A stretch of 63,930 nucleotides of DNA, filler included, from Dugesia japonica (lineage: Eukaryota), in the NCBI GenBank assembly GCA_001938525.1. It is 6 parts of 6 records of this genome, joined end to end, with 100 filler letters (N's around TTAATTAATTAA, not from the genome) between each part and the next. Parts side by side here need not be neighbours in the genome. Positions count along the whole stretch, not along the records: positions 1 to 10,302 come from MQRL01497085.1; 5 more parts are not named here. One strand, given 5' to 3'. This document shows, piece by piece, positions 215 through 48,999 of the stretch. Under the pieces are notes generated by a model. That model had not been told where the DNA came from and did no database searches. It worked only from the letters and a program-made list of their open reading frames with translations. Position numbers and translations under genes: made by a program. The number at the start of each line of letters is the position of its first letter. Within the stretch, counting starts at the first letter, position 1.

Positions 215-880
215 AACGTATGACCCAAATAATTATGACTATGAATAAGTTTCGGGAAAACATTTATCCATGTTCTATTACCAACATTTACAAATTACTT
301 TTAATAGCATCTCTGAATTTACAATTAAATCTCTACATATACAGTTTTTATTGAGAAAATACACTATAATGATTTATTTATAGATGATTAATAAGTTTTT
401 TTCACTTTAAAATTATACAATTCCTTACCCAAATCCGCTTGTAAATTATCTGAGTGTCCATCTTTGAACATTGTCTTGATTGCTGGCTCCATATCACAAC
501 CAGATTTCGATTTATCTGGAATATCTCGTGCATATCTGCTGAATACATTGATACATGTTAGAATATACTTGTAACCTTTATTAAATTTTGAATATAGAAA
601 CACTTCCATCAAATCGATTTGCCATAAATCGTCAATACTATATGTTTTATACGCTCTTGTTGGACATTTTTTCAACATCAGTTTGTTCAAACTGTATGCC
701 AGCTAACCTGATAACCATTTTTTCGGCTTTCTTTTCAACTTTTGAGCTACTTTCATTAATTTTCTAGACCTCATAAACTTGCTGAGGTTATTGGATCGGT
801 CCATATTGTCTTCAGTTTTGCTCCCACTACAAACATGAAAATGTTAAGTAAAAAATAGGTAATAATTGTAATCCACCCAT
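215..880 (-). pseudogene. Polinton-type retroviral-like (rve, c-type) integrase, decayed and 3'-truncated; element A
   Basis: AYSLNK..KK.PTR, WQIDLMEV, NKGYKYILTCINVFSRYA, LQADLGKELYN, GNRTW, PKLIHSHN; clearly similar to the integrase at 48067-48981. Contains stops and frameshifts. Confidence 0.9.
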
Positions 881-3800
881 TGCTTATTTGAAATGAGTTA
901 TTTCTAGTGTTGCTAATGCAATCAATAATACTACTGCTATAAAAAACCCCTTTGTTCATTCATTACTCGATTTATCGATTTATTATATCATTTTATTTTT
1001 ACTTGTATCATCCATTCAGATCTATCATCNTATTTATTCTCGTCCTGCCTATTAAAATAGATGATAATCGAATTCTATATTTCTATATCTTTACTGAATC
1101 TTGCAAATAATGCTTCTAATATGTTTTATCTTTCGTTTTGATATCGGAAAAAAGCAAACTGTATTTTTATTTTGTAATCACAACTAGTGTCTGAAAAAGT
1201 AATAATTTATAATGAAAACAATAAATAAAATTACTCTAAAATCATAATTCCTGATTGAAATGGAAATCTTTAATTTTTCCAAGTTACACAGTAATTGATT
1301 ATAAATTTTTCTTTTGTAAGTAAACTTTGTTGAATTTTTGTTTTTAACTTTAGGAAAACCGTTGCTTATATACTTGCTGTGATGCATACGTACACATCCT
1401 TTGCATGTTTCTATTGGTTGATATTTTTTTTAATTGATATGATTGGTTGAATTTAAGACCTATGCAACACGATTGCAACCGAATATCAAGTGACTGATGA
1501 TTTTAGATTGCCGAAAGCATTGAATTACATATATAACTGGCTTTTGGAACATGATCGCATTAACCATGCAACACGTGTGTAACACATATACACACAAAGA
1601 CTGACCAAACGAAGACTAAACATCAAGACTGCCTGAAAATCATCTATTAACACTCTTGCTTCTCTTCCACCAAGATTTTTGAAAATTTATACAAAGACAT
1701 ACACAACTCAAAAAAATCTAAACTATNNNNNNNNNNNNNNNNNNNNNNNNNNNNNNNNNNNNNNNNNNNNNNNNNNNNNNNNNNNNNNNNNNNNNNNNCT
1801 ATACTACTTACAAATCAAATTTCTTTATCCTTCAAAACATCTTAAAACCCGTAAAATCTCACAGGTCAAAAATCAGGAAAAAATTAAAACAACTCTTGAA
1901 ATTCATAAAAATTCATCTATTATTTATCATATAAACACAAAAGATACATTTTCCTTATAAAATCAACCTTTCTCTTTCTTATAAAAAAAGTTTTAATTCG
2001 ATAAAAAAGGATTTCCGCCAAAAAAGTATTACTTATTAATCTTTAAACTTTAACTACCAAAAAATAAATCGATAATCCTCCAACTCGACCCAAAACGAGT
2101 TTCATCATCTGCGTCAACATCCAACCTTTCCAACAACGTCAAATTCATCCAAATCCATTAGCAACTCACAAAAGCAAACCGATTTTAAGGAAAAGTGCGC
2201 AATAACTGATCAGATTTTCCGGTGCCCTAACATTCATTATAGCCTAACGAAGTACTTTATGCCAAAAATGCTTTAGACAATGTATAGACAGAATTTTGGT
2301 CCCACTACAAAAATACTACTCTCATCTCAAAATAGTAAAAGCACACACATACTCCTTTTGAGTCAACTTTCTTTCTTTACACTATATCTTTACACACATA
2401 CACACACTGCACGTACATAAACGATATGCTAACATACATACATACATGCCAATACCATCCATCACCAATATCGCAATACTTTTTAAAAAAAATTGAAAAA
2501 TAAANAAATTCGAATAAATTAAAACAATATTTAAAATTATAAAAAATAACCCCATTAATACATCAAAAAAATTAAAACTTTTCATCATACCAAAAACTTT
2601 GTTCCGATCAAAAATCTTAAGATTCAAAATCCACGATAACCCAAATCAAAAATTTAAGAACAGTGTTATGTTTTTTCGCTAGTGGATGGGGGTGTTTCAG
2701 TGCGCTACTATCTACCATGTAGCAATAAGACTATTTGGCAAACCACACTGAGTAAAGAAATTACGAAGTTTCTTAGTAATTTGTCATGACTACAGGAAGT
2801 TTATAGAAAACTATGCAAGAAAATCAATGATTTTAGAACAGTTATGTAGTCGACGAAGCCACAAGAAGTTAAAATGGAAAAGTGAAATAAAGGATACTTC
2901 TGAGGGTCTGAAGAAGCGTGATATAATATCCCTTATATTCGCCTTGTAATATGCGCCAACATTGCGAAGAATTTGTGGAGTCAAATACAGGAAATAGTTT
3001 GTAGCTGTGAAATTTGTCAGAAGATCAAAGTAGAAATTAAAAATGTTTAATATTGAGTCAAAACTTTCAAATAAAAACAATTCTCTGTAAAAGAATTGTT
3101 TTTATAGTGTAAATTTTTATAAATTTGTAATTAAAAATTGATTTAGAATTGCCTGAAAGACCTCAATTGTCATTTATGCATAAATTAACTATTTTATCAT
3201 GTGAGTTTCGAAAACTGTTTTATATTTTGACGTAATAATGCAAATTAGGATAAAGTTTATATTTATGGAAAGTAAAGAAATAATGGATTGAATTAATATT
3301 TGCTATCGAGTAATATTAGTTTCTTCGTCAGTAAATAGCTGTAAGGGAAAAGTATGAAAAAATGATTAATATTATCGCTATTATTGTTATTATTATTAAT
3401 AAATATTATTGATTTTTTTCTGTCTAAATAAAGCCAAATAAAAATTTGCATAATGAAATATTTCACTCAGTCGATTTAAACAAAAATTTATTTTTAATTT
3501 TATTTGCTGAATAAATCAGAGTTAATTAAAATATGCTTCAAAAAACTTTTCAACAATAATATTGATTTAATTGCCTAAGTCAAAGTATTTATGAAATATT
3601 TCAGATAATTTTACAACGAAAATATTGAATTACAATATAATGTTATTCAAAATGTTATTTTCAATTGAAAATACGGTTAATAGAAAAATACAATTTATTG
3701 ATTAAAAAATATTCAGTTAATAATTTCAATAAAAATTAATCCCAATGAAAATTACTTGATGAATTATTAGGATATCAAATATCAAGTAAGACATCTTCCA

Positions 3801-4329
3801 CAATTTTTATTAATGCAATGTCATTTAATACATCTCTGGTTGCCTCACGAATTCATATCTTATTTCCACATTACTCACAAAATAATTATTATTTATTGTC
3901 AACAAATTTAAATTTTGTTACAATAAAATATTTAATACATTCGAATTCGACTAATTTTGAATTAATTGTTGGATATTGATAAATTTGTCTGTATAATACT
4001 ATGAAACCACGTGATCAATTTTATTTTTTATAAGTAAACATGTGGAGAATTTTAATGGTATCTTCAAACACGTGCCGAATTGTTTTGCACCCACACGAGC
4101 AAACGCTAAACCGTACGCCATAGTTATTCATTTAAATGATATTGATTTCTTTAAATAACAAAATTTTTATTCAATTACAAATTTATTTCAATATTATTTA
4201 CAAAAATAATTAATATTTTTTATGAACACATACATACACTCGAATTTCTCCATTCGATATAAGATGGTATCTAGAAATTTTTACCAATAACTCAAAATAA
4301 ATATATATCAATTAACTCTTACCGAAATT

Positions 4330-4593
4330 CTATTGATTTTCTATTTGCTGTTCACATTGAGAAATCGATTTCGATGAAAGTAATAGAATTAATTCCAAGT
4401 CTTGTATATAATTAATAACATGTTGTAACAATTCGATTTGGTTGACTTTTTTATTTCTTGGAATAGTTGGAACTAATTTTTTTAATTCACAAAAACACTT
4501 TTTCATTTCGATTGATCTAATTGAACGAGTTAATGAAAATCGTTTTTGTAGTTTGAAAAAATGATTTTTTTTCTTTAAAAAATGTATTGTCAT
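4330..4593 (-). CDS. Id / extramacrochaetae-like helix-loop-helix protein (about 87 aa)
   Basis: [39 protein letters not shown] is the Id/emc HLH signature (LKxLVPxIPxxxKVSxxEILQHVIDYIxDL). First ATG at 4593 (the ORF caller extends to a TTG at 4659). CCAAT-like boxes lie upstream at about 4657 and 4690. Confidence 0.88.
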
Positions 4594-5014
4594 TGAAGAA
4601 CAGAAAACTTTATGCAAATAGTAAAATTTAACATCAGATTTATGAAAAATAAACACCAATTACGTGGTTAGAAAATTAAAGAAATTTGATTGGTCAAAAT
4701 TCCTAATACTGACTGATTTTTATGAATTGGTGACCAAAGTAAATTAGCATAATAACTGGACTTAATTTCAGAATTTTATTTCGTTTTTGAGTTCTATTTG
4801 TATTTTAATGAATACTTTAAATCAAAGTTATCGAATTTTATTTAATTTTATTTGAAAATGTTTGTTTTCTTTTTATTTTAGTTATTCATTGCATTAAAAC
4901 CTTATAAAACTTGATTTTTAAAAAATATTATAAGTAGAGTAGTATTCACTTATGCCTTTCTAGTACATTTTTCTAATTTCATAAAAAAATAAATTTATAA
5001 AAATATGTAAAAAA

Positions 5015-5240
5015 AATATGTAAAAAGTAGATATCACACAAAATATGTGAAATATTCGGTGTGAAATGTGAAATATTCGGGTGTGAAATGAGACATGTGA
5101 AATATTCGGTGTGACATGTGAAATATTCGAAGAAGACAAAATATGTGAAATGTAAAAAGTAGATATCACACAAGAAATGTGACATGTGAAATATTTGGGT
5201 GTGAAATGTGACATATTCGGAGAAGACAAAATATGTGAAT
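5015..5240. repeat. Sub-terminal tandem repeat array of ATGTGAAATATTCGG / ACATGTGA units, with two higher-order copies about 133 bp apart
   Basis: ATGTAAAAAGTAGATATCACACAA recurs at about 5017 and 5150; AGAAGACAAAATATGTGAA also occurs twice; many ATGTGAAATATT units. Confidence 0.9.
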
Positions 5241-5309
5241 TTAAGAGGAATAAATATAAAAATAAAAAAGAGGAATAAAACATCTGTGATTAAATTATTC
5301 CTTTAGAAA

Positions 5310-8300
5310 ATGAGCGCTATAATAAGTTGTGAAAATTGTAATAAGGTGTTTAAGAATTTAGCAGGTAAAATGGGACATATTAGTTCCAGAACTTGTTACA
5401 GAGTAAATGCAGCATTTAAATGTAATAAATGTAATAAAACATTTAATTCAGAAAATAGTTTACAATTACATATAAATTCAACACGTTGTGGTAATTCGGA
5501 AATTTTGCCATTATTTTGTAAAATCTGTAATAAAAAATTCCAAAGGCAAAATCACGCAAGAGCACATTTCAATTCTGAGAAACATAAAAAAATGGCTCAT
5601 GAAGTTGTATTTAGAGAATTACCACAAGAAGAAGCAATTAATTATGATGCTGAAATTAAGGATTTATTTAGAATATATAAAGATTATGAAATTGTTTATT
5701 TTAAAGATAGTAAAGTGGAAATGAAATATAATGTGGAAGGATTATATGACATTCCTATTAGAAATGTTAATGCATTTAAAATTGATGTTAAAGAAATTGT
5801 TAGAAAGTATTTTAGACACGGAAAAAAGATTGTTATAGGCATGACTGTAAAATGCAGATATATAAAAGAAAGAAATAATGAATATGTTGAAAAAGATTTT
5901 ACATCCTTTTCTAAACTAAAAAGAATTTCAATTGAAAGTGAAATACCAAATGTTGTTAATGAAACATTTAACGAATTAGAAAGATATATTGAAGATAGAG
6001 ATAGAGAAGGAAGTGGATGGTCAATGTCGCACATTATAGATTATAAATTAGATCTTTCTAAATATCAATCATTAGCAGGNNNNNNATATTGTAAATTACC
6101 ATTTACAAAACCAGGAGTTAATATAGAAAATAAAGATAACAAATGTTTTCTATATTCAATATTAGCACATAAATATTTACATGATAATCCTACAAGAGTA
6201 AGTAATTACATTCCACATTTAACAGATTTAAAATATAATGATTTGACATTTCCAATGAATATTGACGATATTAATAAATTTGAGAAATTAAATAATTATC
6301 AAATAAATAGGTTTGGTGTCAATGCAAATAAAAAACTTGAACCATTACACATTACACATCACATAAGAAATCCATCACCTGAAGAAAATAAATGTAATTT
6401 GTTAGTATACAAAGATCATTATGTTTTATGTAGAGATTTAACTGTATTTTTCGCAACTAATGGAAATAGAAATTATCCATGCATTAGATGTATGAATTGT
6501 TATTCATCTGAAGAAGTTTTAAATAAACATCAAGATGCATGTATTAGGCACAAACCAAACAACATTGTATTTGAACATAATGATTATTATTTATTTAATA
6601 AATTTTACCAGAAAAATAAAATACCATTTATTCTTATTGGAGATTTCGAAGCATATACAAATTCATATAAAAAACAAAATGCTTTATCTTTAGGTGTTTA
6701 TTTAAAATCAGATTATCAAGAATTAATGGAAAGTAAATATTATGAATTCTCAGGTAAAAATATTTATGATGAATTCTTTCAATTTTTAGAAGACACCAAT
6801 AATAAATTACAAGATATAAAAGATAATAAATTAATAGAAACATTTGAAGGTGAGATACGCGAATTAACATCTGACACAAAATGTTATTATTGTAACAAAT
6901 TTATATCTAACACTGCAGTTATAGATCATAACTATTTCAATGGAGAATTTCGAGGATATTCATGTAATGATTGTAAGATAAATGATAGAAGTGTAAAGAA
7001 TTTATTTATTCCATTTTACTTTCATAACGCATCAGGTTATGATAACCATTTATTTTTTAGGGAATTATTGACAAAGTTTCCAAGTAAAGTAAAAAAGATA
7101 ATTCCTCACTCATCAGATAATTATATTGCATTTCAATTTAGAAATATCAGATTTCTTGATTCACAAGATTACTTCCTTTTACATCTGTTGAAGTAATGGG
7201 AAAATTATTAACACAATCAGGTAATTACCCAATATTAACATCATTTAATTTAAAACCAAAGAAAGCATTATTTCCATACAAATATGTAAAAGGTAACACT
7301 ATAACAGAAGTTGAAACATTATTAAAATCTAATAGAATACCAACTAAAAAAGATTTCTTTAACACACTAAATCAAAAAGAAATATCTAACGATGAACATG
7401 ATGAATTTTTAATAGATTATTTAGATTTCAAAAATATGTGGCAATACATGTTACACTATATGAAGTTAGATGTTTTAATTCTAACTGATTTCTTAGAAAA
7501 CTTTAGAGATTCAAGTTTGAATAACATTTTAAAATAAGATCCATGTTATTCATATTCTGCACCTGGATATGCATGGGAAACTGGAATGTTAAATGCAAAT
7601 GTAAAACTTAAATATGCAAAACCAGAAACCTATGATATTTTCTTAACAGCTGANGANGGAATTAGAGGTGGATATTCTGGTGTTTTAGGTGAACGTCAAG
7701 TATTTAGTTATAATAAAAATAAAGAACCATTTACAAGACAAATGAATAAAGCATAATTTGAAGATTTAATAAAAATGATGAATACACACGATTTGATTCC
7801 AGATGAATATCTTGATGATTTAATGGAAGATACATTTATAAAATATTTAGATGAAAATTCTTTATATGCATCATGTATGACTAAACCATTACCAACAGGT
7901 GAAATGCGTGAGTGTGAAATGTTAATATATGAAACAGCAACTGACACATTAAATTTTATTTATGAAGTTGATCTTGAATATCCACCTGAAATACATGATA
8001 AAACTAAATATTTTAGATTAGCACCTGACAGAATAAATATTACAGAAGACATGTTAAACAATTACCAAAAATCATTTAATAAGAAAATAACAAATAAAAA
8101 TATTAAATTAACACTTAATCAATTTGACAAGAAAAATTATGTTGTACTTGGAAGTACATTAGATTTATATTTAAAATTAGGTATGAAACTAAAAACAATT
8201 CACAAGAAAATTAAAATGGAAACATCTACATGGTTTAAAAATCATGTTCACAAATTAATAACTTTAAGAAAAGAATCTAAAAGAAATAATGATGTGTTTG

Positions 8301-10023
8301 GTGATTACATTTACAAATTAATGTTAAATGCTTTCTATGGAAAAACTTTAGAAAATATTAGAAATAGATGCAACATAGAAATTGTAGATAATGACAGAGA
8401 TTATCAAAGGTTTGCAAGTAAAATAACTTTCAAGTCAAGTAAAATCTTTACAATAAATGATTCAAATGAAGCTCATATTGCGGCAATGCATATGGAAAAA
8501 GGAAAACTAAAATATAACAAATTTCCATATATATGTTTTACCATTTTAGAAAATGCAAAACAAGTAATGTATGATTTTGTATATAATCAAATGCAACCTT
8601 TAATTAGAGAAAGTAATTATAAAATACATTACAGTGATGGTGTAACATCTGACACTCCAATAATTTTAAGGAGAGATAATAAAGTTGAAATAAAAAAGAT
8701 TTCAGAAATAGATCAAAATTATAAGAAAAATAAATATGATAAAAAATATTATTCTTATCCTGAAGATTATGAAATATGGACAAAAAGTAATTAGTCTAAA
8801 TTAAATAAAGTAATTAAGCATAGAACTAATAAATAAATTTATAGAGTTAGAACTAAAATGGGAATTGTTGATGTAACACAAGATCATTCACTGTTAAATG
8901 ATAATGGTGAACAAATAAAACCAATAGATGTAACATGTGAAACTAAATTATTACATAATAAAATATTTAAAGTAAATAAGGAAATAAACATTGATAAAAT
9001 TTTATCAGACATTTATGATAACGAACCTAATAATTCACATTTAAAGAAAGCATTTATAGATGGATTCTTAATTAGAAGTGGAGCAGCAACAATTTATAAT
9101 AATAATAAATATTATTATTCATTTTTTAATAAAGATTTATCTTTATTAAATAAAATAAAAAGATTTCACAAATCACCAATGATATTTGATTCAATAAGAC
9201 CACAAAATGCTCATAAACTTAGTTCACTAAATCCAAAACCTCATGCAGAATATTATTTTGAAAATTATTATAATAAATTTGTAAGAACTAAAAGAATTCC
9301 AGATCACATGTTAAATGCAACATTTAACATTAGATATTGGTTCTTTGTAGGATTTTATGCATCAAAAAATAATAATAAAAAAAAAATTAGTTTTACACAA
9401 GAAGGAAAAGAATGTTTTTCACAGTTGTATTATTTAGCAACATCTTTAGGAATTAATTTAGTTGTTACAGAAAGAAAAGATACAGACTATTTCACTGCAA
9501 CACAAGTAAAATCAAGTATTACAACTAACATGCAAAGTGTAACATTTTTAAGAGAAGGTATTGAAGATGTTTATGATATTGAAACTGAAGATGGAACATT
9601 TAACTGTGGATTTCCATTAATAATGAAAAATAGTGATTAATATTTGTAGAGATAAAACATAGAGATAATTTAGAGAGATTACAAACTTTACTAGGAAATG
9701 ATTTATTTCAGATGAAAGACGAATTACCTAATTCTGAAATAAATCAAGCTAATTTTATAAAAGCAAAAAGTTATGCTTATAGTTATAATGATAGCGCAGC
9801 ATTTGATTCTAGAAATAAAGGTGTCAAGAAAAATAATAAATTAATGATGAAAAATTTTGATTCAGTTTTAAAAGATCCAAGGAAAATAATTTATGGAACT
9901 AATTTTTCATTAAAATCTGAAGGTCATGAAATAGAAATATTAGAACAAAAGAAAATAGCATTAATGGCATATGATGATAAGAGAATTATAGAAGATAATG
10001 CAACAACAACATGGCCACATTGA
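5310..10023 (+). pseudogene. Protein-primed family B DNA polymerase (Polinton group-2 type) with N-terminal zinc fingers, OTU-like region, EndoVII-type insert and an intein
   Basis: GSGW; NKDNKCFLYSILA; ExoI GDFEA; ExoII FHNASGYDNH; RFLDS; FPYKY; ExoIII HYMKLDVLIL; GIRGG; motif A YLDENSLYASCM; motif B KLMLNAFYGK; split motif C; KSYAY; KGV; DDKR. Five predicted ORFs join through 2 frameshifts (about 7163 and 9638) and 4 in-frame stops (7535, about 7754, 8792, about 8834). Confidence 0.95.
8639..9631 (+). mobile_element. Intein (Hint splicing domain plus degenerate LAGLIDADG homing endonuclease) at the PolB motif C site
   Basis: Block A GVTSDTPIILR directly after YSD; block B VDVTQDHSLL (TxxH); endonuclease blocks AFIDGFLIRSG, KRIPDHMLN, FFVGFYASK, LYYLATSLG; block F VYDIETEDGTF; block G LIMKN followed by +1 Ser. 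993 nt = 331 codons in one frame, with two point-mutation stops. Confidence 0.93.
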
Positions 10024-10113: not shown

Positions 10114-10302
10114 ATGACGAGCGAAGCGAAACCAATGAGTGTAACGAATGCAGGGAATCCAACAGAAGAAGAATTAAAGAAAATAGTAAATTCTAAAACA
10201 TGTAAATCTGTAAAGATCAACGGTAAAAATTATATTAGTAAAAAAGTAAAAGATGAACTTAAAAAGAAATCACATGAAGGTGGATTTGCATTTTTAGCTG
10301 CA
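10114..10302 (+). CDS. Small basic ORF with HEGGFAFLAA motif (Polinton pX/core-like virion protein candidate), truncated by spacer
   Basis: Lys-rich stretch followed by GGF and hydrophobic residues, like KHEGSGFFWAAL in 47388-47864; resembles an adenain-type protease cleavage site. Confidence 0.5.
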
Positions 10303-12861: not shown

Positions 12862-13578
12862 TCACTCAATAAAATTCAATAAAAAATTAATAGTTTCTTC
12901 AATGTTTTTATCAAATGCCAAATAAGCTTCAATCGTTTGATCTTCACTAAAACCCATTGAAACAATTTTATCAATATTTGCGACATCTCCTAAAGTTAAA
13001 CTCGAATCTGTAGGTTGATCATAATCAGGTTCGGTGATATTTTCAAAATCACCTGATTCCATTTGTTCGGGTAATAATTTTGACAAATCTGGATCATTTT
13101 GCATATCATGAACCATGCTCTGCAAAAGATCTGAATTTTGTTGCAAAGTAGAACTGTAACTATTCATCATATTGCTCATTTTCCCACCTTCAGGGTTGTG
13201 CAATAATAACTCTACCGCAGTTTCTAGATCATTACCCGCCTCATTCAAGGCAAACAATGCTTGCTCTTCACTATATCCCATTTCTGTTGTTAAACACATT
13301 AAATTTTTATTNNNNNNNNNNNNNNNNNNNNNNNNNNNNNNNNNNNNNNNNNNNNNNNNNNNNNNNNNNNNNNNNNNNNNNNNNNNNNNNNNNNNNNNNN
13401 NNNCTATTAATTGTTCATCTTCCAAAATATTACCTTTAAAAATTAATTTAAAGTGTTTCAAATTGTATTCTTTTCCATATTCCTTTTCAATTTTTAATTT
13501 CAATTCTTTCACAAATTCACTATTTTTTGCCTCTATATTTAGTAAAATTCCATTTAGAGTTTTGAGAATTATTTGCAT
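12862..13578 (-). CDS. rad23: RAD23-like ubiquitin receptor (UBL - UBA1 - STI1/XPC-binding - UBA2)
   Basis: MQIILKTL...VKELKLKIEKEYG...KLIFKGNILED (UBL); EMGYSEEQALFAL..A.NDLETAVELL (UBA1); LQQNSDLLQSM...DPDL; IDKIVSMGFSEDQTIEAYLAFDKNIEETINFLL (UBA2). An N gap hides part of the gene. Confidence 0.88.
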   Translation of the reverse strand: MQIILKTLNGILLNIEAKNSEFVKELKLKIEKEYGKEYNLKHFKLIFKGNILEDEQLIXXXXXXXXXXXXXXXXXXXXXXXXXXXXXXXNKNLMCLTTEMGYSEEQALFALNEAGNDLETAVELLLHNPEGGKMSNMMNSYSSTLQQNSDLLQSMVHDMQNDPDLSKLLPEQMESGDFENITEPDYDQPTDSSLTLGDVANIDKIVSMGFSEDQTIEAYLAFDKNIEETINFLLNFIE

Positions 13579-14304
13579 GTGCGTAATATCAATAAATTAT
13601 ATTATTTAAACGAATTAATAACTTTTTAGTTGATAAAAAAAAAATTTTATTTCTATTTTATAATTTCAATAAATATTTTGTTAAAAATTAAACTTTTCAA
13701 TCTGTAAAATCTTAAAGTTTATAAATCAAAATGTTTCGAATGAAAACTCTTTAATTATATGTATGATTAAATCTTACAGGTTAAATTAATTTAAAATAGT
13801 GTTGTCAAAACCTTTTTTACGCAACACACCATAGAAAAATTAAAGAAAATTTAATTTTTTCGGAAAAAACATTGGTAAAAATTTTGTATTCAAATAATTT
13901 TTCATTACAAACTTAAATTTGGTATTTCAAAAAATGTAATTCATAAACAGAAATAGGAATTAAGGAAGAATAAAACTAAAATTATTTCCAAAAAATTGCA
14001 CAGAATTTACGAAAATAATATTAATTAAAATTTACAATGTTTATTACAAAATAAATTTGTAAAAATTACTTGTTTGTGAATTTTGAAAATTTCCGCGACA
14101 AACATAATTTAAAGATAAAATTTGTCGATATTTGATAATATAGAGAATGTATTATTAAAATTGAGTACGAGGAACTTTAAAGTTGAATTTTCATGGAAAA
14201 GATAGATTAATTCAAAATTTGAATTAATAATTTTCTATAAATGTAATATACATGGTGATTGATAAGAATGAATAAAAGTTTGACATGTGAAATCCATTTG
14301 ACTA

Positions 14305-15150
14305 TTGATTTTTTGTGGCAAAAAACAGGAACATTTGAAGAGAAACCAAAATCAGGTCGTTCAATCAGTTAGCATGAACAAGATTACTAAAGATCTTAAA
14401 ATTTTCCGTCATTCCGTTCAAACGATTGTTCTTAATGTACTGGGACTCAGAACCTATTGTTTATTAAATAGACATGTTCTGACCGAAAAAACCAAGAAAA
14501 ATTGCTTGGAGAAATGTAAAAAACCCAACGATCTTTTTATGGTTTGGCGCATTGAAGATGTGTTGTGGTCTGATGAGAATGTTTTTACCATTGAATTGGT
14601 CAAAAACTCAAACAATCATCGCCAACTTTTGAGTCCAGCTCTAGAAGCCGGAAAATTAAAACAATACATCGTTTCCTAAGAGCTTGATGGTTTGGGTTGA
14701 GTTAGCTCACGTGTGGAAGACTTCGTTGATTTTTATCAACAGAAACGTAAAAATCAATGCGCAAGTTTATCAAAAAGAGATTTTGAAGAAAGCCGTAATA
14801 CCATGGAAGCGAAAAACCTCGTGCATGCTTTTTCAACAAGATTGGGCTCCAGTCAATGGACCTAAATCGACATTTGCCCACCTCGATGCAAACGCAAAAA
14901 CTTATATGACAAAGGATCAGTAGCCATCAAACTGCCATGATCTCAATCCATTTGTCTTTTCAATTTGGGACTACCTGCAGGAACATTTAAAGTTGAGGAA
15001 AATAATAAGTTTGGATAATTTGAAGAAGTGCCTTATCAAGGAATGGAACGATTTGGATTCTGACTACTTGCGCCCTACTATTGCTTCTCTACCAAAACAA
15101 ATTCAAGCCTGCATAAATTCTGATGGTGGTCATTTTGAAAACTCCTTATA
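14305..15150 (+). mobile_element. Tc1/mariner superfamily transposase pseudogene, DD37D (maT) type
   Basis: LWSDENVF, MVW, KINAQVY, FQQDWAP, *PSNCHDLNPFVFSIW, CINSDGGHFE. 37 residues lie between the QQD Asp and the third catalytic position (here mutated to Val). Confidence 0.88.
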
Positions 15151-16699
15151 AAAATTAATTGTAACATGTCGCTTGTAATAAAAATTAAAGATTTAAATTT
15201 ATTTGGCTCTTCAATATTTAGTTTCAAAATGATACGTTTTCCGCATACTTATACTTTTTTATTTTTAGTGAGAAAGTGTTATTTGACGATGAATGTTGAT
15301 TTTGAAATGATAAATTGTAATAAGTTGAGAAAAGTTATTTATCAAAAAAGGTACTTATGTTATTTACAAATTTTTCTTCGTTGACTTTTTTACAAATAGA
15401 TTATTATCTGAATTATAATTTTTAAGATTATTAACTGACCATGACTATTATGTATTTATTATTCGACAAGAAATTGTATAAATATACTTCGTGAAATGAC
15501 TTTTACTTAACTTTTTTGTTTATAACCATTTGTAAAAAATATTCTGTTGAAAAAAAGATTTAATTTTTTATCTCACATTCAATTCAGATTTATTGTATGA
15601 CTCAACCAATTGAAAACACTTATTTAGTAACAGAAACAGGTTAAACAAACACTCTACTCTTCTTCTTCCTATACATTTACCCCTTCCTTTTAATCGTTTT
15701 CTTCTTCTTTGCCGTCCCTTATTTTTCCCCCATTTTCTTGCTCTTTTCTACCTCTTTTTCTCTTCTTTGTTTTCCTCTTTATTGTCCTCATTTATTTTTA
15801 TTATATAACTTATTTGTATAACTTATATAATCGGAAAATATACATGACTCTTCNNNNNNNNNNNNNNNNNNNNNNNNNNNNNNNNNNNNNNNNNNNNNNN
15901 NNNNNNNNNNNNNNNNNNNATGTCGCAACATGAGTTTTTAGTGTTTAGAGCAAAACGCAAAAATTTTATCCATCTCACTCTTTCTTAACATTACTTTTTT
16001 TAAACGCTTTCAATCTTATTTTAAATAATGAAATTTAATTAGAAATAAAACCTACAAGAAAATATCAATAATTTCTTACAAATACAAATTTGATGACATA
16101 TGTTTGAGCAGAACCCATCACCATCACCGAAAAATAACTGATGAAATATAATAATAAATAAAGAAATAAAATGGGGAAAATATAAAGTAAATTTGTTTAA
16201 ATACAAGTATTATTGATACTATTAGTTAAATTCAAAATTTCACAACTCTCCATAAATTTTTATTGATTATTACAAGTTTTTTTATTAAAATGAAAAATGA
16301 TGAAGAACAATTCACAGTATTCAAACAGACAATCTGAGAAATTTTAATAAAATATATTTTTTAAAAATATCGATTTTCATTTGTAAAATATTTCTTATAT
16401 CATAATTTCACAAAACAACTTTTATAATTTTATAATTTTACATAATATAAAATATCGATTTTACTTTTAAAATATTTTATACATCACAATTTCACAACAC
16501 AATTTTGATACTTTTTAAATTTTACATAATATAAAATATCTATTTTGATTTTAAAATACTTTAATTTCATAAAATAATTATTTATAATTTTAAAAATTTA
16601 TCTTCTCTTTTTTCAATAATATTGGAAAGTTTCAGAAATAAATTTTAAATAATATATATATAATAAATAAAAATTAAAAAATCTCAGACATTTGAAATC

Positions 16700-19660
16700 C
16701 TTACACTCTTAAAATTTTTTAAAATTTTTTTCCACATTTCTTTCGATCATATTGCCTCCCGAATTCTTCAGCAGGTATCGTCATTCATGAATCTGTTTTA
16801 TCAGTTCGTATGGACCTGTGTATCTTTCTTTTTCTTTTGATATGTTTCTTACATTGATTGGAACCTCGTCTCCAACTTGAAAATGTCTCTTTGTTGGTGT
16901 CAACTCTTCAGATTCTTCATTCTTTTCTCCATTATTTAACCATCGTTCTCTATGTATCTTCTTACCGAATATCAATTGTGATGGAACTATGCCCAAAGTC
17001 TTCTGGCTTGTTGCATTTAGAGTATATTCGATTTCTGGTATTATCTCTGCCTAATTTTTATTCTTTTTATCTTTGATTGTTGTATTGATGTAATCTCTGA
17101 TCGTTTTGAATTAACGTTCTACTATTCCGTTTGTATTATGACGATATGGAATTGAAAAGAAAATCGTTATATTCATTGAATCTGTCATCTCTTTGAAGGC
17201 TTTTGATTCAAAGGTCTTCCCACAATCTACATGTATCTCTTTTGGGGCACTAAATCTCAGTATCCATTTATCCATAATCGTTTTCTTTATTGATTCCTCA
17301 TCTTGTTTAACTAGGACCGTTAAGCATATGTATTTGCTAAATTGATCTATTATGGCACATATACGTATGTATAACAATTTATTTCTACGGTTTCTTGTAA
17401 TGGCCTACTGATATCAATATAAATACTCTCAAATGGTTTATTAGCCTTTAATTTTACAGTTTCCACCTTTGATTCAATTGTTGTTACTTTGTTCATTTGG
17501 CACGCTGTACATTCTTTAATTACTTTTGACATAATTTCTCTCAAATCTGCCATATAATATTTATTTTTCAAATAATTTATCACTTTTTCCGTGCCTGCGC
17601 GCACCAATAAATTATGCATTTCTTTTACCATTTGAATTTTCCTTTCTGACGAGATCCATATTTCGTCGTCTTTTGTTTTTATTATATCTTCTAATAATCC
17701 AAACTTTTTACATGTTCCATTTTTCATATCATTCTTTATCTGTTCAATTTTTTCTACGTTACTTTGCCATTTATATGTATTTTAATCTGATATACCATTA
17801 ATTGTTCTTGTCTTTATTTTTCCTTCCTTTGGACTCTCATGATCTGTTAAGCATTGTACACACGTACCACAATTCATTCTCGACAGNATATCTGCATTCG
17901 TGTGTTTCCCACCTTGTCTAAACTCCAAAACTATATTTAGGCTACTAAGAAAATTCATCCAAGTCTTAAATTGCGGAGTAATTGGCTTGTTTGTCTTTTC
18001 CATAAATGCAATTGCCTTGTGATCTGTTCTCACCAAAAATCTTTTTACCATACAAATCAGGTTGAGGAGGGTTACAAAAATAGTAAATAGCCAATAATTC
18101 TTTTCTTGCTATACATTATCCTTTTTCATGAGCTGACATTGTATGTGATCCATATGCAATGAGTTGTTCTAATTTTGTTCCATCTATTTGCGACAAATTT
18201 GCTCCGATGGCATCAAAACTCGCATCTGTATCTAGTACAAACCTCTTTTTGATCTCGGGAAAACTCAATATCGGTACTTTTGTTAATGCTTCTTTCATCT
18301 CATTAAAAGCTTTATCACAACTTTCCACCAACACAAGTTTTGTATTATTACTTCCACATAGCTCTTCCAAGCTTCTAGCTTTCTTTGAGTAATTATTGAT
18401 NAATTGTCTATAGTTATTTCATATTCCTTAAAAGCTTCTCAAGTTCTTTACACATTTAGGTCTTCCGAAATTTTTTATTGCTTCAATTTTTGTTGAATCA
18501 GTTTAAACTCTATTCTTGCCTATGACATGTCCTAAAAATTTGACTTCTACTTGCAATAAATGACATTTTTCCGTATTAATTCTCAATCCTGATTCTTGAA
18601 TTCTTTTAAAGATTTGGTCTAAAATTCTGTAGTGCTTCTCTAAATTTACTGAAAATATCAATATATCATCCATGTGTACCATCGGTTCTCTCAATCCTCC
18701 TAATACTTTTATCATTAATTCTTGAAACGTTCCAGGTACTGCAACTATACCAAAAGGCATTCTTGTGAAGTAATACTGTCCATTTTTCGCAGAAAAGGCT
18801 GCTTTCTCTTGTGAATCTTTATGCAACGGAACTTGATAGTATACATTACTAAAATCAATAGTACTAAAATATCTTGCACCACTCAAATTGTCTAGTATTT
18901 CCTCTACACTAGGCATCAGAAATGCCTGTCTTTCTGTGATTGCATTCAGTTTTCTAAAATCTAGACATATTCTAACTTCTTTCCTTTCTTTTTTCCAAAC
19001 ACATATTAATGGAGTGTTCCATTGCAAATTACACTTCCTAATAATGCCATTGTCAAACAAATTCTTGATCTATCTTATTCTCTAAATGCATTGATTGTCT
19101 CCATGGTTTTGTATTTATTGATTCTCAATTTGCAATTATTTGATGTTCTGCCATTATTGTTCTGCCGATATCCCAGTTGTTTGCCATGAATATTCCTTTA
19201 TGAATCATTTTAACATTCTCCAAATTCTCATTTTGCTTGTTAATCAATACTTTTATTATTCTCTGTACTCTCTCTTCATCCGTTGTTCTGCGTCCATACT
19301 TTGCTTCTATATTAGAAAGATACATTTCATTATCCTCACATTTAATCTCTTTCAGCAGTTGGAATCTAAACTGTTCCTGTAATTCGTTTCCTCCTATTAA
19401 ATCTACATGTATCTGTTTCATCACAATGAATTTAACTGTTTTGCTTTTATTCTCGAATTCCACTTCTATATTTATCGTACCTATGATTTCGATCGGACTA
19501 TTATTGACTCATCTTAAATTGTCTTCATTTTTTAATAAATTGACGTTTCCCAATCTTTCCAATATTCTCAAATTCATTACATTAACTCTTGCTCCAGTGT
19601 CTAACAAGTAATCAACTTTTACGTTTTGTATTTCAACCGTTATACTTGGTCAACATTGCA
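16700..19660 (-). mobile_element. Ty3/gypsy LTR-retrotransposon pol pseudogene (PR-RT-RNaseH-IN)
   Basis: LLDTGA protease (about 19590); RT CLDFRKLN, FSTID, MPFG, HMDDILI; RNase H LDTDAS, RTDHKA; integrase H..H..C..C, IDQFSKY, HVDCG, NGIVER; C-terminal YTGPY. Domain order is gypsy-like. Confidence 0.95.
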
Positions 19661-19799
19661 TCTTGTCATAACTTATTTCTTGTCACTTTTTCTCTTCTTT
19701 AGTCAGAAATTCACTTTCGACTTATCCATTTATATCATTGATCATCTCTGGTTGGCCTGTAATCAATTCTTTCTTTACAAATTTGTAAACGTTTTCTTT

Positions 19800-20240
19800 T
19801 ACATCATTGTGCTAATCTACTCGCGCAAATGGGAGTTGGAGGCCGAAGTGGAGTGGCTCCGACAAGAAAATAAACACTTAGCCAACTCCAGTACAGATTT
19901 TCCTCAATATTCTCCTCAGTTTCTACAGGAAAGATCCGAAAGGTGTTCATCAACCTTTCTACAAACAATCAACCTGTGATAACATTGTATATATTAAAGA
20001 TTGTAAATTTATAATAAAAAAATATCATGTTCGTGAATTATCGGTTTTTCTCTGTTACGACTTCTATCGTCGATAAAAAATGAACCCGAATAACAAGCTT
20101 ACGGTGCGCTCAAGCACTCTTAACGTGGTGTAATAGTTACCCGGGCTGCCATCAACGTACTCAAAGGACGGGTACATTAAATCTTTGTTGGCGGGTTTCG
20201 AGTGATATAATTTTTGAGCTATATTAACCATGACCCCAAC
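19800..20240 (+). repeat. Dispersed repeat with two small decayed ORFs (copy 1; copy 2 at about 29060-29510)
   Basis: WELEAEVEWLRQENKHL versus WELEAEGEWLRTENKQL, plus about 200 bp of shared downstream sequence ending CCATGACCCC. Confidence 0.85.
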
Positions 20241-20659
20241 ACATATAATTTATCAAATAATTAATTTAGCGCCCTCTAAATTAGTAGGGTCGGGGCAAAT
20301 GCCCCTTTCTCGCATTAGTTACGCCACTGAGTCTATTGCACGCAAATGTAAAATACAGGAATTAATAAAGTAACTTGTCGTTATTTAGATTCACCATCTA
20401 AGTTATTATAAAAAGCCAAATCAAACACAAAAAATGCGGTTTGTTAATGAAGACTATTGAAAGTATATATTTATTATTATGGACAGAAATAAATAAAGTG
20501 TGAAAGGTAAACAATTAAATTTTACAAATAATTGTTGATTTGTTTGAAAAAAATTGTGTAAAAAATAAAAATATGCTAATAAAAAATCTAATCGCGCGGT
20601 TAATTTTGAAGATAGTTTGTAATTCAAATAAATTTATTTATTAATCACCTTTTAGTCCA

Positions 20660-21400
20660 TTAATTATCTCGGTAATAGTCAATTTGTGTAAGTTTTGGAC
20701 AATTTGGTCAATTATTTAATTGGTTAAGATGATTTGGTTAATTATTATCTCAATTTAGGTAATTTTGGACAATTATTTACTCTGTATGGACAAACTTGGT
20801 TAATTATTTGCTCACAAGAGTAATTTTAGGTCAATTCGGTCAATTATTTCCTCGGGTGTTGTCAAATTTGGTTAGTTTTGCACGATTTGGTGAAATATTT
20901 ACTCACAGTGCTCATAATATTCGACCTCACCAAAAAAAACTTTCAACCAATTTCACCTTAATCACTCAAAAATTACCGATCCCCAGGAAAAATTTGACAA
21001 ATTAAACAATCCTAAAGAAATATTTGACCAAATTTATCTGAACCAACTAAAGATTGACCTTATTTGACCTCCCCAAGGAAGATTAGGACAAAAAACCAAC
21101 TAAAACCAATCAAAAATTACCCTAATTAACTAATCCCGAGAAAATATTCAACCATATTTCCCAAAGATTACCTAAAACCGACCAAGTTTACCCAAACTGA
21201 CCAATCCTGAGGAAATATTCGATCAAATTCACCTGAACCAACCAAAAATTGACCAAATCGTAAAAAAAATATCCAAATTTTCCAGTTCCGAAAAAATATT
21301 CGACTAAATTCGCCTGAACCAATGAAAATTGACATCATTTGACTTCACCAAATAAATTCCCAACTAAAACACCTAAAAATTATTAATTTCTTAATCCTAT
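20660..21400. repeat. Foldback-like inverted minisatellite
   Basis: Left part repeats TTGGTCAATTATT-like units; right part repeats the complementary AAATTGACCAA-like units. Orientation switches near 20910. Confidence 0.6.
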
Positions 21401-24400
21401 TACATAAAATTTCACCTATGAAATTAATCTCATGACATAATTTGTGTGTAAAAAATTTTACCAACTAAATAATCAGGGGGAAAAAACCTCTCTGACATAA
21501 TATTACCTAATGATGCAATTTATCATGCAATTTTTAAATTGCCAACTAAATGCATTGGGGTTAAATTTCATTACATCACANGGGGGTTTACCGAATGTGT
21601 GCTGAGGTTTACTGCTAATATCCCTCTTCTAACTATATGTTAATACATTAAAAGAAATATATTAAAACATATTTTTTTAAAATATATATAATTATATAAT
21701 TAAATATATAATTAATAAATAGATCAAAATTTGATATATACAATTCTAAATAAATAAAAATTAAAACATTTTTGTGCGGCCCAGAATTTCTTAAAGGTTT
21801 AACTCTCTCGTTATTAAGAATCGATAAGTTACACAAAATGATTTCATTTTATTATGTAAAAATAACTTTTCATTTTATTTATGTAANAATAAATTGGTTT
21901 AATTTTCTGGATTAATATATTTTAGAAAATTCTTTTTCAATTTAAAAAATTTGGTAAATTAAGTCTTAATCAATTTTATTTTTTTTTCAATAAAAATTTT
22001 AATATTATCTTGTGAAGATAAATTTCTAAATTTTTTTAATTAATTTAAAATATTTACCGAAAAATGAAAAATTTATTAATAAAATGAAAGTTTTAATGGC
22101 AATTATATCTAGTTTTCTTAATGGAAATCTAATTGATACTTAATGGTATACAGTGCAAATTAATGGAATAATTTTATAAAATATTTCTTTATGAACTAAT
22201 TATTTTTAATATAATATTTTAAAACTTTTCAAATTTTATGATTGTTATCACATTATTTTTCTTTTTTTTAAATGGCAAAATTGAATCCAATTATTTTTTT
22301 AAAATATTCAATGGTTGAATGATAACAACGATTAAAATAATATTAAATTGAATATGAATAATGTCTATGGTCAAGTGTCCTATTTGCCAATTTCAAGCGA
22401 CTCTCTTGAGTTAAGCATGTGAAGAAAAGTTAATTAGAATTAAAGTTGATTAAAATTGAAGAATGTTTTAAGTTATAAATGCTTAAGTTTTCAGAATAGT
22501 TGTTTTTATAATAGGAAACTACCTTGAAAAACTAAAGAAGCTAATTTTGAAGAGGAAATTATATTAATATATTAGTAGTTGGAAATTGAATTTGTATTGT
22601 AAATTGGAATTTCCATTATTGTTAACATTGTGATTAACATTATTTGTTTCATTATTGAATTACTTGTAAAGTGTACTGTGTAAGTTATTTGAATTTAATA
22701 CTACTAATAATTATTGTAAGTTGTTTCCTCAGAATCGTTTATTTTGTTATTTGTTTCCATAAAATTAACACTTGAGTTGTAAAATAATNNNNNNNNNNNN
22801 NNNNNNNNNNNNNNNNNNNNNNNNNNNNNNNNTTAATTAATTAANNNNNNNNNNNNNNNNNNNNNNNNNNNNNNNNNNNNNNNNNNNNGTTATTGAAAAG
22901 CTTATGTTTGTTTTAATTCAACAAAATTCAAAAAATGAGATTTTCCCTGACAATATTAACATAAATTTTGTTTTCCCCGGGCAACATTAACATTAAATTT
23001 CCCAAGAAAATATTAACATTAATGTTCCTCGGGTAATATTAACATTTCAATTAGTCGCTCTGAGCAATATTATTATTAGTTGTGTAAGGTTCATAGTAAT
23101 GGATGTTTCAGTGTTCATACTATGAGATGTTAGTTGGAAACATTAGTTGTTACAAGGTACAAACCATGAGATGTCTATGGGTACGCACTCTTGGCTGTAA
23201 CTGACATAAGACGATCCCTGAACAAAACTATTCAATGCACCTGACATTAGCTGCTCACCTAAAGAAACAATTACTATCCCAAGGAAAATCACTCTTAATA
23301 TTTATATGTTTAAGTAAAATTATTCTGTCTTAGTAAAGTCAATGAAATCAGTTTATTATTTGCATTCTAAGTAAAATTATTATCAATAATATCATTNAAA
23401 ATTATTTTCATACATAGTTTCAATAACAGTTTTGATTGAATTCCATACCATTACATACCTCATCCGACATGTACAGTCCAACGGAACGAATCCATCAAGG
23501 TCCGTTAGCATCCAATCGAGTCCGTTCTTAATTAAACTAATCGATCAGCTTGTGTATTTTTAATAGACTAAGCTCGATTACAGTATGTGCATCTCTGACA
23601 GAAATGCTTCCAACCGTTCCCATCCGGTCTTAAATATACATTGCTACAACTGTATAATCTTAATAAGATAAAAACAGTTAGTCGTCAACGCCATTATTTG
23701 GCTAGACACAGATCGGCAAAATGGTAAAAAATTCTAAGTCAACTGTTATTAAATACATATTTAATTAAATCAATACTTATTATCATTAAGGAAAAGCATT
23801 ACTAAAGCTTCATTAAGTTAAATTATTTAAGAAAAACATTACCATTAAATAAAATTATTACCATTTAATTTTAATAAAATAAATCCTTACTTATTGTCGA
23901 AGTTCATAAAAATGATCATAATTTGTAATAAGTTACCATATCTTCAATAACTTTAATCATATCATTAAGAGTTCATAACAATTATTATCTGAAANNNNNN
24001 NNNNNNNNNNNNNNAAATTATTAATTTTTAAAATTGTTAACTTAAAATAAAATCATTACGAAAATTATTAGAATTTAAGAAAATCATTACAGTTTAATTT
24101 AAATGAAAATAAATCCTTACTTATTTTCATAATTTATCAAATGTTATAATATAATAATAATAAATCATAATAGATCATAATAAATTTTCATATTATATAT
24201 CACAAATCATAATAGGTTTTCCTAAATAATCTAAAATAAATTAATAATATAACAAATTAAATAAAAATCTTACTTGATATTGTTAAAATCATGCAATAAT
24301 ATGAAATTATTCCATTCAGGCCATATTTAATTAATATGTTTAAACAAAATTATTTAATAATTGTTTGACATATTTTAATTAATATGATTTAACAGAAATT

Positions 24401-24699: not shown

Positions 24700-27120
24700 A
24701 AAGTTGAACTTGAATGACTAGTTCTATACTTTCTATGCAGTTGTCTCTAATTTTCAATGATGACTCGTGTACTTATCATGATGATACATGTATATTCTAT
24801 GATGAAGTGTATATGTTTTGTGTTGAAATTATAATTTTCATGACAAAGTGATTATATTTGTGTTGAAATGTTTATTTTCAATAATGAATCTTATATTTTA
24901 TATGTTCACTTAGAAATTTTATGTATTGTTTTAGAATTTTATAAGATGAAATGTACTTTTAAACGTTGACTTAGATATTTCAATGTGATTAACTAGATAT
25001 TTAGTGTGATGAATTATAAGTTTCACTTGTTAGTTTGAACTTTTATCTGCTGACTTAAAAGTTTTTTTATTTTCTATGTAATCTTTGAATGTTATTGAAT
25101 GTCTCTGTGTAATTTATAAAACATTTTAATAGAAATATACAGTGTTTGAAATGTTTTATTGACTTGTGTGTATTTTTAAATAATTTTAATGACTTTTTTA
25201 TAACTTTAACATGATGAATTATAATTTTTATGTAATAGTTTAGAACTTTTATGTGACTACTTAGAATTTTACTGTGATTAAACGAAATTTTTGTGAGATA
25301 GAATTTCATTTAGTTTAATGTGTTACATTTCTGTGTGATGGATTGTAATTTAAGTGTGATAGATTATAATTTTTATGTGTTGGCTTAGAAATTTATTTGT
25401 TCAGTGTTAATTTTATGGATCAAATTAGACTTTGTGAGATAGGTTATACGTTTAATTTGTTGGTTTAAATTTTTATCTGCTGACTAAAAAATTTCATTAT
25501 TTTCTATGTTATTTTTGAATGTTATTGAATACCTCTGTGTAATTTATAAAACATTTTAATAAAAATATAGAATGTTTGAAATAATTTATTGACTTATATG
25601 TATTTTTAAATATTCTCAATTACTTCTATATAACTTTAGTACGATCAATTAAAATTTTTATGTACTGGTTTAGAAATTTTGTGTCACTACTTAGAATTTT
25701 ATTGTGATTGAATGAAAGTTTGTGAGATAGATTGTAACTTTAGTGTAATATGTTACAATTCTGTGTGATGGATTGTAATTTTAGTGTGATAGATTATAAA
25801 TCTATGTGTTGGCTTAGAAATTTGTTTGTTCAGTGTTATTTTATGAATTAGATTAGACTTTTGTGAGATAAATTATAATTTTAAAGCGTTGACTTAGAAA
25901 TTTCAATGTGATTATCTATATTTTAAGTGTTACAGATTATAAGTTTAACGTGTTGGTTAGAATTTTTATCTGTTGGCTAAGAAATTCTTTGTAACAAAAA
26001 TAGAAATCATGTGCTGAATTAGAATTTTATGCGTTGGCTTAGAATTTTTATGAGATGTCTAAAGATTTTGTGTGATTAAAATAATTTTAGTGCATGGATA
26101 ATAATTTTTATGTCTTGACTTACAATTTGTGTAATGAAATGTAATTTCATTGTGTTGAATTACAGTTTTAGTGTTATTGACTTAGAAATTTTATGCGTTA
26201 AAACTTAAAGTTTTACTTGTTGAGTGTTAATTTTTATGAGTTAGATTAGTCTTTTGTTAGATGGATTGAAATTTTTAAGCGTTGACTTACAAATTTCAAT
26301 GTCATGAACTACATTCTAGTGTGACAGATTATAAGTTTAACTTGTTGAATCAGAGATTTATGTGTTGACTAAGAAAGTTTTTGTGACAAAAGTAATTCTA
26401 GTGCCTGGATTATAATTTTAAAGTAATAACTTAAAACTTTCAATGTAGTGAACTATAGTTTTGTGTGATTGATTATAAATTTACCTGATTGGTTAGAACT
26501 TTTGTGTTGACTTAGCAATTTTATTGACTGCTTTGTAATTTATGAAACTTTTTAATAACTTTTATGTAATTTTTGAAACGTTTTCTTGACTTCAATGTAA
26601 TTTATGATCATTTCTCATGACTTCTATTTAATTTTAATAGAATGGATTATAATTTTATGTGATGAAATGTAATTTTTGTGTGTTGACTTAAAATCATTAC
26701 ATGTTGAGTGTTAATTTTTTTTGACCGAATGCAATTTGTTATGATGAATGATAATTTTAATGACTTCTATGTAATTTTTCAAGAGTTCAATTGACTTCTA
26801 GTGAATCTTTGAAAATTTTCATTGACTTCTATTTAATGTTTTGATAATTTTGAAAGTTATTGATTACTTCTATGTAATTTATGAAACTTTTTAATGATTT
26901 CTATGTAATCTTCATGTGTTCAGTTTTAATTTTCATGAGTTAAGTAAAGATTTTGTGTGATGGATCATAATTTGTGCAATGGATTATATCTTTATGCGTT
27001 GATTTAGAAATTTTCATGAGTTAACTTAGACATTTTGTGTGATTAAACGCAATTTTAATGTCAGGTATTAAAGTTTTTTATGTATTGGCTTTGAAACTTA
27101 TATGATTTAATGTAAAGTTT
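24700..27120. repeat. Degenerate T/G-rich satellite (GACTTAGAAATTTTATG-like short units) with a higher-order duplication of about 430 bp
   Basis: TTTATCTGCTGACT...GAATGTTATTGAAT...TGTGTAATTTATAAAACATTTTAAT at about 25042 and 25472; short motif repeated throughout. Confidence 0.8.
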
Positions 27121-37250: not shown

Positions 37251-37517
37251 GCTCCTGAAGTTATTAGAATGGATACAATCAATCCTTATACAGATAAATC
37301 AGATGTATATTCATTTGGAATTATAATATATGAAATAGTATCAATGAAATTGCCTTATCATCATATCAATAACAAAGAGCGCATTTTATTTATGGTTGGA
37401 AAAGGAGCTCTATTTCCAGATTTCAGCCTTATTAAAATAACTTTACCTCAACAATTTAAACATCTTATGATCGACTGTCTTCATTTTGATCGTGAATGTC
37501 GTCCAGGATTTACACAA
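37251..37517 (+). CDS. raf: Raf-family kinase exon (APE motif to C-lobe)
   Basis: TTTAG|APEVIRMDTINPYTDKSDVYSFGIIIYE...LPYHHINNKERILFMVGKG...RPGFTQ|GT; joins in phase 0 to the exon ending ILWM. Confidence 0.93.
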
Positions 37518-47212: not shown

Positions 47213-47387
47213 ATATACCGAAGATGAAGTTTGAAAAAGTTATTCCAAAAATCAAAGAAAAAGAAGAAGCGAACTAAACGAAAAGTGAAACGACTAAAAC
47301 AAATATCGAAAGCAGATATTAAGAAAGTAATGGGGAAGCTCTCAAAAATATGGGTTCATCTAAAAACAAAATTTGAAATGAAATTGT

Positions 47388-47864: not shown

Positions 47865-47868
47865 ACAA

Positions 47869-48981: not shown

Positions 48982-48999
48982 AATAGAATAGAATCGAAC

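Follow-up and report, generated by a model that had tools for sequence, protein, structure and literature searches.

The window, i.e. the whole stretch of Dugesia japonica DNA that was analyzed (63,930 nucleotides), contains a decayed copy of a multicopy Polinton polymerase gene in which the catalytic motif C is interrupted by an intein. Comparison of the intein and of its host gene with their respective relatives makes it likely that this intein lineage entered Polintons once, long ago, probably from the PolB of a giant virus, and that homing then spread it among them.

Results

Anatomy and decay of the intein and its host gene

The exteins are parts of a protein-primed PolB (PF03175, E 1.8e-17) of the Polinton type, as the sequence-only reading had said, and the gene spans positions 5310–10023. 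The intein (331 codons, + strand) is preceded by Y-S-D, ends in K-N and is followed by Ser at +1, its insertion point lying after the first Asp of PolB motif C (Y-S-D / intein / S-D), which is the pol-c site. The features of this part of the window are as follows:

4330–4656 (−): Id/emc-type helix-loop-helix gene (best match ID-1, E 1.7e-12)
5045–5129 (+): short tandem repeats upstream of the polymerase, possibly the element's subterminal repeats
5310–7196 (+): N-terminal polymerase part with C2H2 zinc fingers, an endonuclease-VII-like segment and the start of the exonuclease; the frame ends at a frameshift near 7160–7196
7160–8638 (+): remaining N-extein, carrying the PF03175 match, up to Y-S-D of motif C; in-frame stops at 7535–7537 and 7754–7756
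8639–9631 (+): intein at the pol-c site, 331 codons, decayed; Gly at position 1, stops at 8792–8794 and 8834–8836
8639–8962 (+): N-terminal splicing (Hint) region, blocks A and B; T-x-x-H at residues 80–83 intact
9026–9493 (+): two-motif LAGLIDADG homing endonuclease domain, limits approximate; frame open, both motifs without their catalytic acidic residue
9512–9631 (+): C-terminal splicing region, blocks F and G; K-N end, one-residue deletion common to all Polinton-type inteins
9632–10023 (+): C-extein with Ser at +1; frameshift within the first three codons, continuing in frame at 9637–10023
10114–10302 (+): beginning of the element's next gene, cut by the assembly gap at 10303; no Pfam match, multicopy like the polymerase

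The sequence-only reading had recognized an intein at 8639–8960. The peptide motifs that it quoted are present there in frame and the feature is real, but it represents the N-terminal splicing region, that is, the first third of the intein. The complete intein consists of a Hint domain and a LAGLIDADG nuclease, and it scores above the curated cut-offs of both TIGR01445 (intein_Nterm; E 4.5e-9) and Pfam Hom_end (E 7e-5). The structure predicted for it from a six-sequence alignment (pLDDT 81, pTM 0.84) has intein-endonucleases as its best matches among solved structures (7qsu, E 1e-14), and this model, together with the TIGR01445 match, indicates that the N- and C-terminal regions together make up a Hint fold. 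As in class 1 inteins, the T-x-x-H of block B, the C-terminal Asn (Asn331) and Ser at +1 are present, the penultimate residue being Lys instead of His, and the insertion is exact and in frame, with uninterrupted homologous alleles. The GC content of the intein (22.6%) is close to that of the exteins (24.5–24.7%) and therefore gives no hint of recent arrival.

This copy of the intein and polymerase is dead. Residue 1 of the intein is Gly, a non-nucleophile at the position where class 1 inteins have Cys or Ser, and the window intein is therefore a degenerate copy; the two in-frame stops within it, at codons 52 and 66, mean that the copy cannot make protein; and neither LAGLIDADG motif has the catalytic acidic residue of an active endonuclease. 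The host gene adds its two frameshifts and the two in-frame stops of the N-extein. Among the other Polinton-type inteins extracted, all 13 have a canonical nucleophile at position 1, and the catalytic acidic residue is kept in both LAGLIDADG motifs of the relatives examined.

Relatives of the intein

The nearest relatives of the intein lie at the same site in 11 other Polinton-type polymerase clusters (defined at 90% identity, the window not counted); they are 35–47% identical to it and mostly intact, two of these proteins ending inside the intein. Among 115 matches, Polinton-type polymerases make up seven of the top eight plus one more (47% identity for P0004, 36–38% for the others), a profile search contributed three further clusters, and the 11 best BLAST matches among 257 extracted inteins are all Polinton-type. 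One of the clusters comes from the symbiont bin of a clam and others are on contigs of up to 1 Mb. Inteins of RNA-primed PolBs rank behind the Polinton-type ones. The sequence-only reading had likened the intein to giant-virus (Mimivirus-type) PolB inteins and had proposed a jump from the polymerase of a giant virus into that of a Polinton. A giant-virus-type intein is indeed combined here with a Polinton extein, and the window does group with giant-virus-type pol-c inteins, but its nearest relatives are other Polinton-type inteins, and such a jump would therefore be ancient and common to them all, and would not have happened at this locus or in this host.

The wider family was surveyed with HMMER against 1.84 billion representatives. 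The best 150 of 1,564 matches comprise 132 PolBs whose motif B or C junctions are of the eukaryote or giant-virus type, 12 type II topoisomerases, one PolB of the D-T-D-G type and five unclassified proteins. A check for giant-virus identity covered few of the RNA-primed hosts, and others could be mirusviral or cellular. The same intein family also occurs at two type II topoisomerase sites and at PolB motif B (P0035, P0259, P0292, P0294 and others). The nearest named viral intein is that of ChoanoV1 PolB (P0497, 36% identical to the window), the Mimivirus PolB intein being absent from the sequences compared, and the P0013 family sits on two GVMAG contigs. With the predicted structure as query, Foldseek ranks the PolBs of a phycodnavirus, Pandoravirus, Megavirus and Marseillevirus above phage proteins.

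Archaeal and cultured-phage inteins, which as closest relatives were to speak against a giant-virus connection, are far more distant. Archaeal PI-PkoII (PDB 2cw7) shares the intein-endonuclease fold with the predicted model (TM 0.70) and also resides in a PolB, but differs in sequence, its match reaching E 1e-4 only, whereas the nearest Polinton intein matches at 1e-77; a single phage record out of 50,697, one that bears no annotation, matches weakly at 23%. Scanning of viral contigs with the single intein protein gave no match, and scanning with the intein alignment left 80 loci, none above 35% identity; relatives of P0239 or P0004 were not found on viral contigs. A scan of prokaryotic genomes gave two loci, both on contigs in Bacteroidales bins and both with giant-virus-like motif-C flanks. 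The intein-bearing PolBs at these loci (L162:8001-8987 and L163:5086-6072) are nearly like that of viral contig L003, and the two contigs are probably mis-binned giant-virus DNA. An atlas search with the P0006 intein returned only matches under 0.9, and about 6% of one RNA run yielded 14 partial reads of less than 90% likeness.

Two characters at the end of the intein were scored. A one-residue deletion within the last ten residues is found in 14 of 14 Polinton-type inteins (a set that includes the window and near-copies), in 90 of 287 RNA-primed motif-C inteins and in none of 49 other inteins; its carriers outside Polintons include ChoanoV1 PolB and a family on GVMAG contigs. The second character is the K-N end in place of H-N, on which the proposed link to Mimivirus had partly rested. 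It is present in the window, but with 4 of 14 Polinton-type inteins compared with 199 of 287 RNA-primed motif-C inteins carrying it, K-N was rejected as a marker of giant-virus origin.

Intein and extein histories

Searches with the extein gave 522 matches, and among the 120 best 115 have an empty motif C, none has an intein and 5 were unscored; the only named one of these 120 is from a coral. An extein tree of 40 rows was built with 10 filled and 30 empty proteins, the latter from 32 hand-picked candidates of which two were dropped. In this tree the window groups with three empty proteins (99/98), and presence or absence of the intein changes at least six times, by gains or losses. Congruence of intein and extein trees had been named in advance as evidence against a transfer between polymerases, and the outcome is divided. 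For the window and P0004 the two histories are discordant, since their inteins are 47% identical (E 8e-85) and their exteins are not alignable (E 9); joining the two on the extein tree is not rejected (p-AU 0.26), because P0004 forms a very long branch. The subclades P0006/P0010 and P0005/P0009/P0474, on the other hand, are alike in both trees, and much of the pattern can therefore be inheritance with loss.

These mirrored subclades, and the clustering of the filled/empty label on the extein tree (only 5 of 500 shuffles were as low), are what would be expected if the intein were ancestral in Polinton polymerases and had been inherited vertically with many losses, in the absence of ongoing homing. 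We nevertheless regard purely vertical inheritance as unlikely: it demands precise loss in most lineages, given the 115 empty sites among the 120 best extein matches, and it is opposed by the discordance of the window and P0004, by the integrity of both nuclease motifs in the relatives examined and by a co-conversion-like tract in the P0006 cluster.

That tract was found by comparing filled and empty alleles. The P0005 and P0006 clusters (15 listed members scored of 121 and of 136) each hold filled and empty members with extein identities of 97–100%, and 94% for one member. In the P0006 cluster, seven filled and six empty members are 98–99% alike at positions −60 to −11, whereas the ten residues flanking the site on either side match at 58% and 60%, and at +1 to +10 the filled members are 92% identical to the filled alleles of other families versus 60% to their own empty alleles. 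The pattern is co-conversion-like, matching what would be expected of co-conversion from a foreign donor. The empty members of this cluster (P0139, P0141–P0143, P0145 and P0146), which are 93–99% identical overall, vary sharply at motif C; three different sequences occur among the six, including C-D-S and T-D-A after the first Asp, and this variation may represent escape from the nuclease. Filled and empty alleles are seen also in the giant-virus family P0013 (L001 and L002, the latter of about 1337 aa versus 1688) and within the P0101 family (L165).

In the host itself, about 16,000 contigs per run map to the stretch at 80% likeness in each of two sequencing runs, and a joint that skips the intein is seen in two of three contig runs. 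Summed depth in run X1, which is not copy number, is 24,000–80,000 over the N-extein, 13,000–22,000 and 42,000 over the two splicing regions, and 300–3,300 over the nuclease region; the profiles of X5 and X9 have the same shape. The dip over the nuclease, which can mean either deletion or divergence, suggests that many filled copies have a lost or diverged nuclease.

Possible donors of the lineage

For the intein trees, 350 inteins were extracted, of which 220 are 310–400 aa long; 94 were kept, by thinning on identity and by taking 34 of 54 long-ended rows, and 42 were then removed by hand. The resulting 52 rows gave a quick tree, and 50 rows (two long branches dropped) a careful one. The window pairs with P0004 in every intein tree (96–100). 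In the careful tree the Polinton clade (100/99) lies inside a 99/95 clade of RNA-primed motif-C inteins, which contains ChoanoV1 and a GVMAG family and in which most hosts are unnamed; its apparent sister is P0239, at 80/70. Separate trees of intein and extein, proposed at the outset as the way to detect a transfer, thus place the extein among Polinton polymerases and the intein among giant-virus-type PolB inteins, with the sister weakly placed. Because of this weak placement, because the root on topoisomerase inteins is arbitrary and because archaeal pol-c and Mimivirus inteins are absent from the trees, a giant-virus PolB is the probable, not the proven, source of the lineage.

A competing source would be a prokaryotic virus with a PolB of the D-T-D-G type, the likeness to giant-virus inteins then reflecting an older common ancestor. 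It is suggested by P0101 and P0347, two inteins on IMG/VR contigs whose exteins match phage and haloarchaeal-virus polymerases: they join the Polinton group in whole-intein and Hint-only trees (SH-aLRT 82–94), altogether in four of the five trees holding both, and with them included the support of the Polinton clade itself is 17–89. However, they sit on the longest branches (1.2–1.75), depart from the Polinton clade in the nuclease-only tree and lack the shared one-residue deletion. No other group is so low in identity to the Polinton inteins (Hint 33–39%, nuclease 24–33%), whereas the best values of the short-ended giant-virus group are 45–56% for Hint and 35–46% for the nuclease. A tree of better likelihood without the prokaryotic-virus join exists; the 52-row tree that holds the Polinton and short-ended giant-virus groups together has a log-likelihood 13.3 above that of the free quick tree, a grouping that is not significant (p-AU 0.647). 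Adding that the phage records yielded only the one weak match, we judge a prokaryotic-virus origin quite unlikely.

Transfer could also have run in reverse, the short-ended giant-virus subgroup receiving the intein from Polintons or from a small virus related to them, or the two could have shared an unsampled donor such as a mirusvirus. The deletion carries no direction, and the sister position is weakly supported, but inteins of the giant-virus type far exceed the Polinton ones in number and diversity and are spread over several sites and genes (the 132 PolBs and 12 topoisomerases II of the best 150 matches), and the Polinton clade is nested among them when the tree is rooted on topoisomerase inteins; a reversed or shared direction is thus very unlikely. 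For the preferred direction, from giant virus to Polinton, the flanks are informative as to mechanism: Polinton and giant-virus-type sites match at only 6–10 of 15 bases of flanking DNA, and the first jump was therefore not ordinary homing between near-identical alleles, the same point that is made for Mimivirus and archaea in the accessible part of an earlier report (PMC549080).

The element in its genomic setting

The Id-type gene lies ~650 bases upstream of the polymerase, within the same stretch free of long N runs (1799–6079) as the polymerase start, and to our knowledge Id genes are specific to animals. An exon-like piece of a Raf-type kinase is present at 37251–37568 (+; best match B-Raf, E 1e-27). 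The nearest extein has recorded look-alikes among ctenophores, arthropods, molluscs and echinoderms. On the basis of the nearby Id and Raf-type genes, the coral match of the extein and these look-alikes, the host of the element is very likely an animal, the polymerase element very likely residing in animal DNA beside animal genes. That the element is instead a contaminant, or protist or symbiont DNA mis-joined to an animal scaffold, is hardly credible in spite of the many gaps in the scaffold and the fact that no sequencing-run contig spans the stretch, because the Id-type gene and the polymerase start share one stretch with no long N run, because the roughly 16,000 contigs in each of the two runs come from different studies under one organism label, and because of the animal-phylum look-alikes.

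Integrase, capsid, ATPase and protease genes and terminal inverted repeats were not found for the window copy, which is cut at 10303. A second decayed Polinton lies at 47382–55652 (+), with an integrase at 48067–48432 and a polymerase at about 53.6–55.65 kb with an uninterrupted motif C, which makes it an example of an empty site from another family; a third, more decayed Polinton-type polymerase remnant lies at about 57600–59800 (−). The window also contains a short (about 240 aa), apparently intronless Rad23-like gene at 12862–13596 (−), with a ubiquitin-like domain and two UBA domains; a long imperfect inverted repeat at 24916–26521, centered near 25450, with 444 bp arms at 86% and further arms outward; and two related Ty3/gypsy-like retroelement remnants at 16501–19508 and 39577–41647, 84% identical over 2.1 kb.

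Discussion

Both the pol-c site and giant-virus inteins are already known from the accessible portions of PMC549080, PMC5784728 and PMC5871332, the first of which describes the pol-c site in motif C (D|T-D-S) for Mimivirus, whose PolB intein has 351 aa. The Polinton-type inteins (331–350 aa) resemble these giant-virus pol-c inteins in their motif C site, their Hint and LAGLIDADG domains and the frequent K-N end; they differ from them in making a clade of their own and in residing in a protein-primed polymerase, that of an integrated Polinton, instead of in an RNA-primed PolB.

Polinton polymerases have been reported to carry HNH or VSR nuclease domains (bioRxiv 10.1101/2023.08.22.554363, in the accessible text of which the word intein is absent), and the available part of PMC11161782 suggests that nuclease insertions in Polinton polymerases result from intein invasions. 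Those insertions are likewise nucleases inside Polinton polymerases, but they are fused domains, whereas the family of the window combines a complete Hint domain and its junction residues with a LAGLIDADG nuclease, and its empty alleles at a catalytic motif are exact. A further parallel is provided by inteins described in the accessible part of PMC10710043, those of Anaeramoeba and those in virus-like polymerases that lie on algal and labyrinthulid nuclear scaffolds: like them, the Polinton inteins are virus-borne, end in nuclear DNA and appear to move between non-allelic sites. The difference is that the host here is very likely an animal and the carrier a multicopy Polinton, and the accessible text of that paper does not contain the words 'polinton', 'animal' or 'metazoa'.

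A survey of eukaryotic inteins places viral polymerase inteins only in giant-virus families and unclassified viruses (PMC5784728, available sections), PMC12220804 and PMC3671162 mention inteins only in general in the text accessible, and PMC8097293 does not mention them. In the main texts of the open-access literature searched, no Hint-LAGLIDADG intein is described for a Polinton polymerase or for an animal genome. What appears to be new here is therefore the occurrence of a known intein allele (pol-c) in animal DNA, within a class of host gene that is new for it, and it matters because inteins have been stated to be absent from metazoan genomes (PMC8529194, in the part available).

In the scenario that we favor, a pol-c intein would have been acquired once, long ago, by a Polinton polymerase, the source probably being a giant virus present in the same cell. 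Intact copies would yield a precursor from which the intein splices out, so that motif C is rejoined and the element can replicate. Polymerase genes that lack the intein would be cleaved at motif C by its LAGLIDADG nuclease; with a filled copy as repair template, the intein and a few flanking codons would then be copied in. We infer splicing from the motifs, the fold and the exact empty alleles, and homing from filled and empty alleles at 97–100% identity combined with the co-conversion-like tract. Since many Polinton copies are present per host, one nucleus would contain both filled and empty targets, and homing would proceed among these many copies, with occasional jumps between distant polymerase lineages. 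In the family of this host the nuclease would have decayed while the splicing parts persisted in many copies, corresponding to a late phase of the homing cycle, and pseudogenization of the window copy would be the last step.

A bolder proposal, which we advance tentatively from these sequence comparisons, is that animal germ lines harbor working mobile inteins, a Polinton-specific clade that may splice in animal cells, home between integrated copies in one nucleus, cross distant polymerase lineages and drive escape variants of motif C. An intein in a catalytic motif persists only if it splices, and intact filled copies would therefore imply a polymerase made through protein splicing. If this is true, the Polinton intein clade widens the known range of inteins by a new virus class and by animal nuclear DNA, in which they are passengers, and it would record gene flow between giant viruses and Polintons. 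It would also constitute a natural homing system in which sequences of filled, empty and variant target sites are in hand, making splicing and cleavage directly testable.
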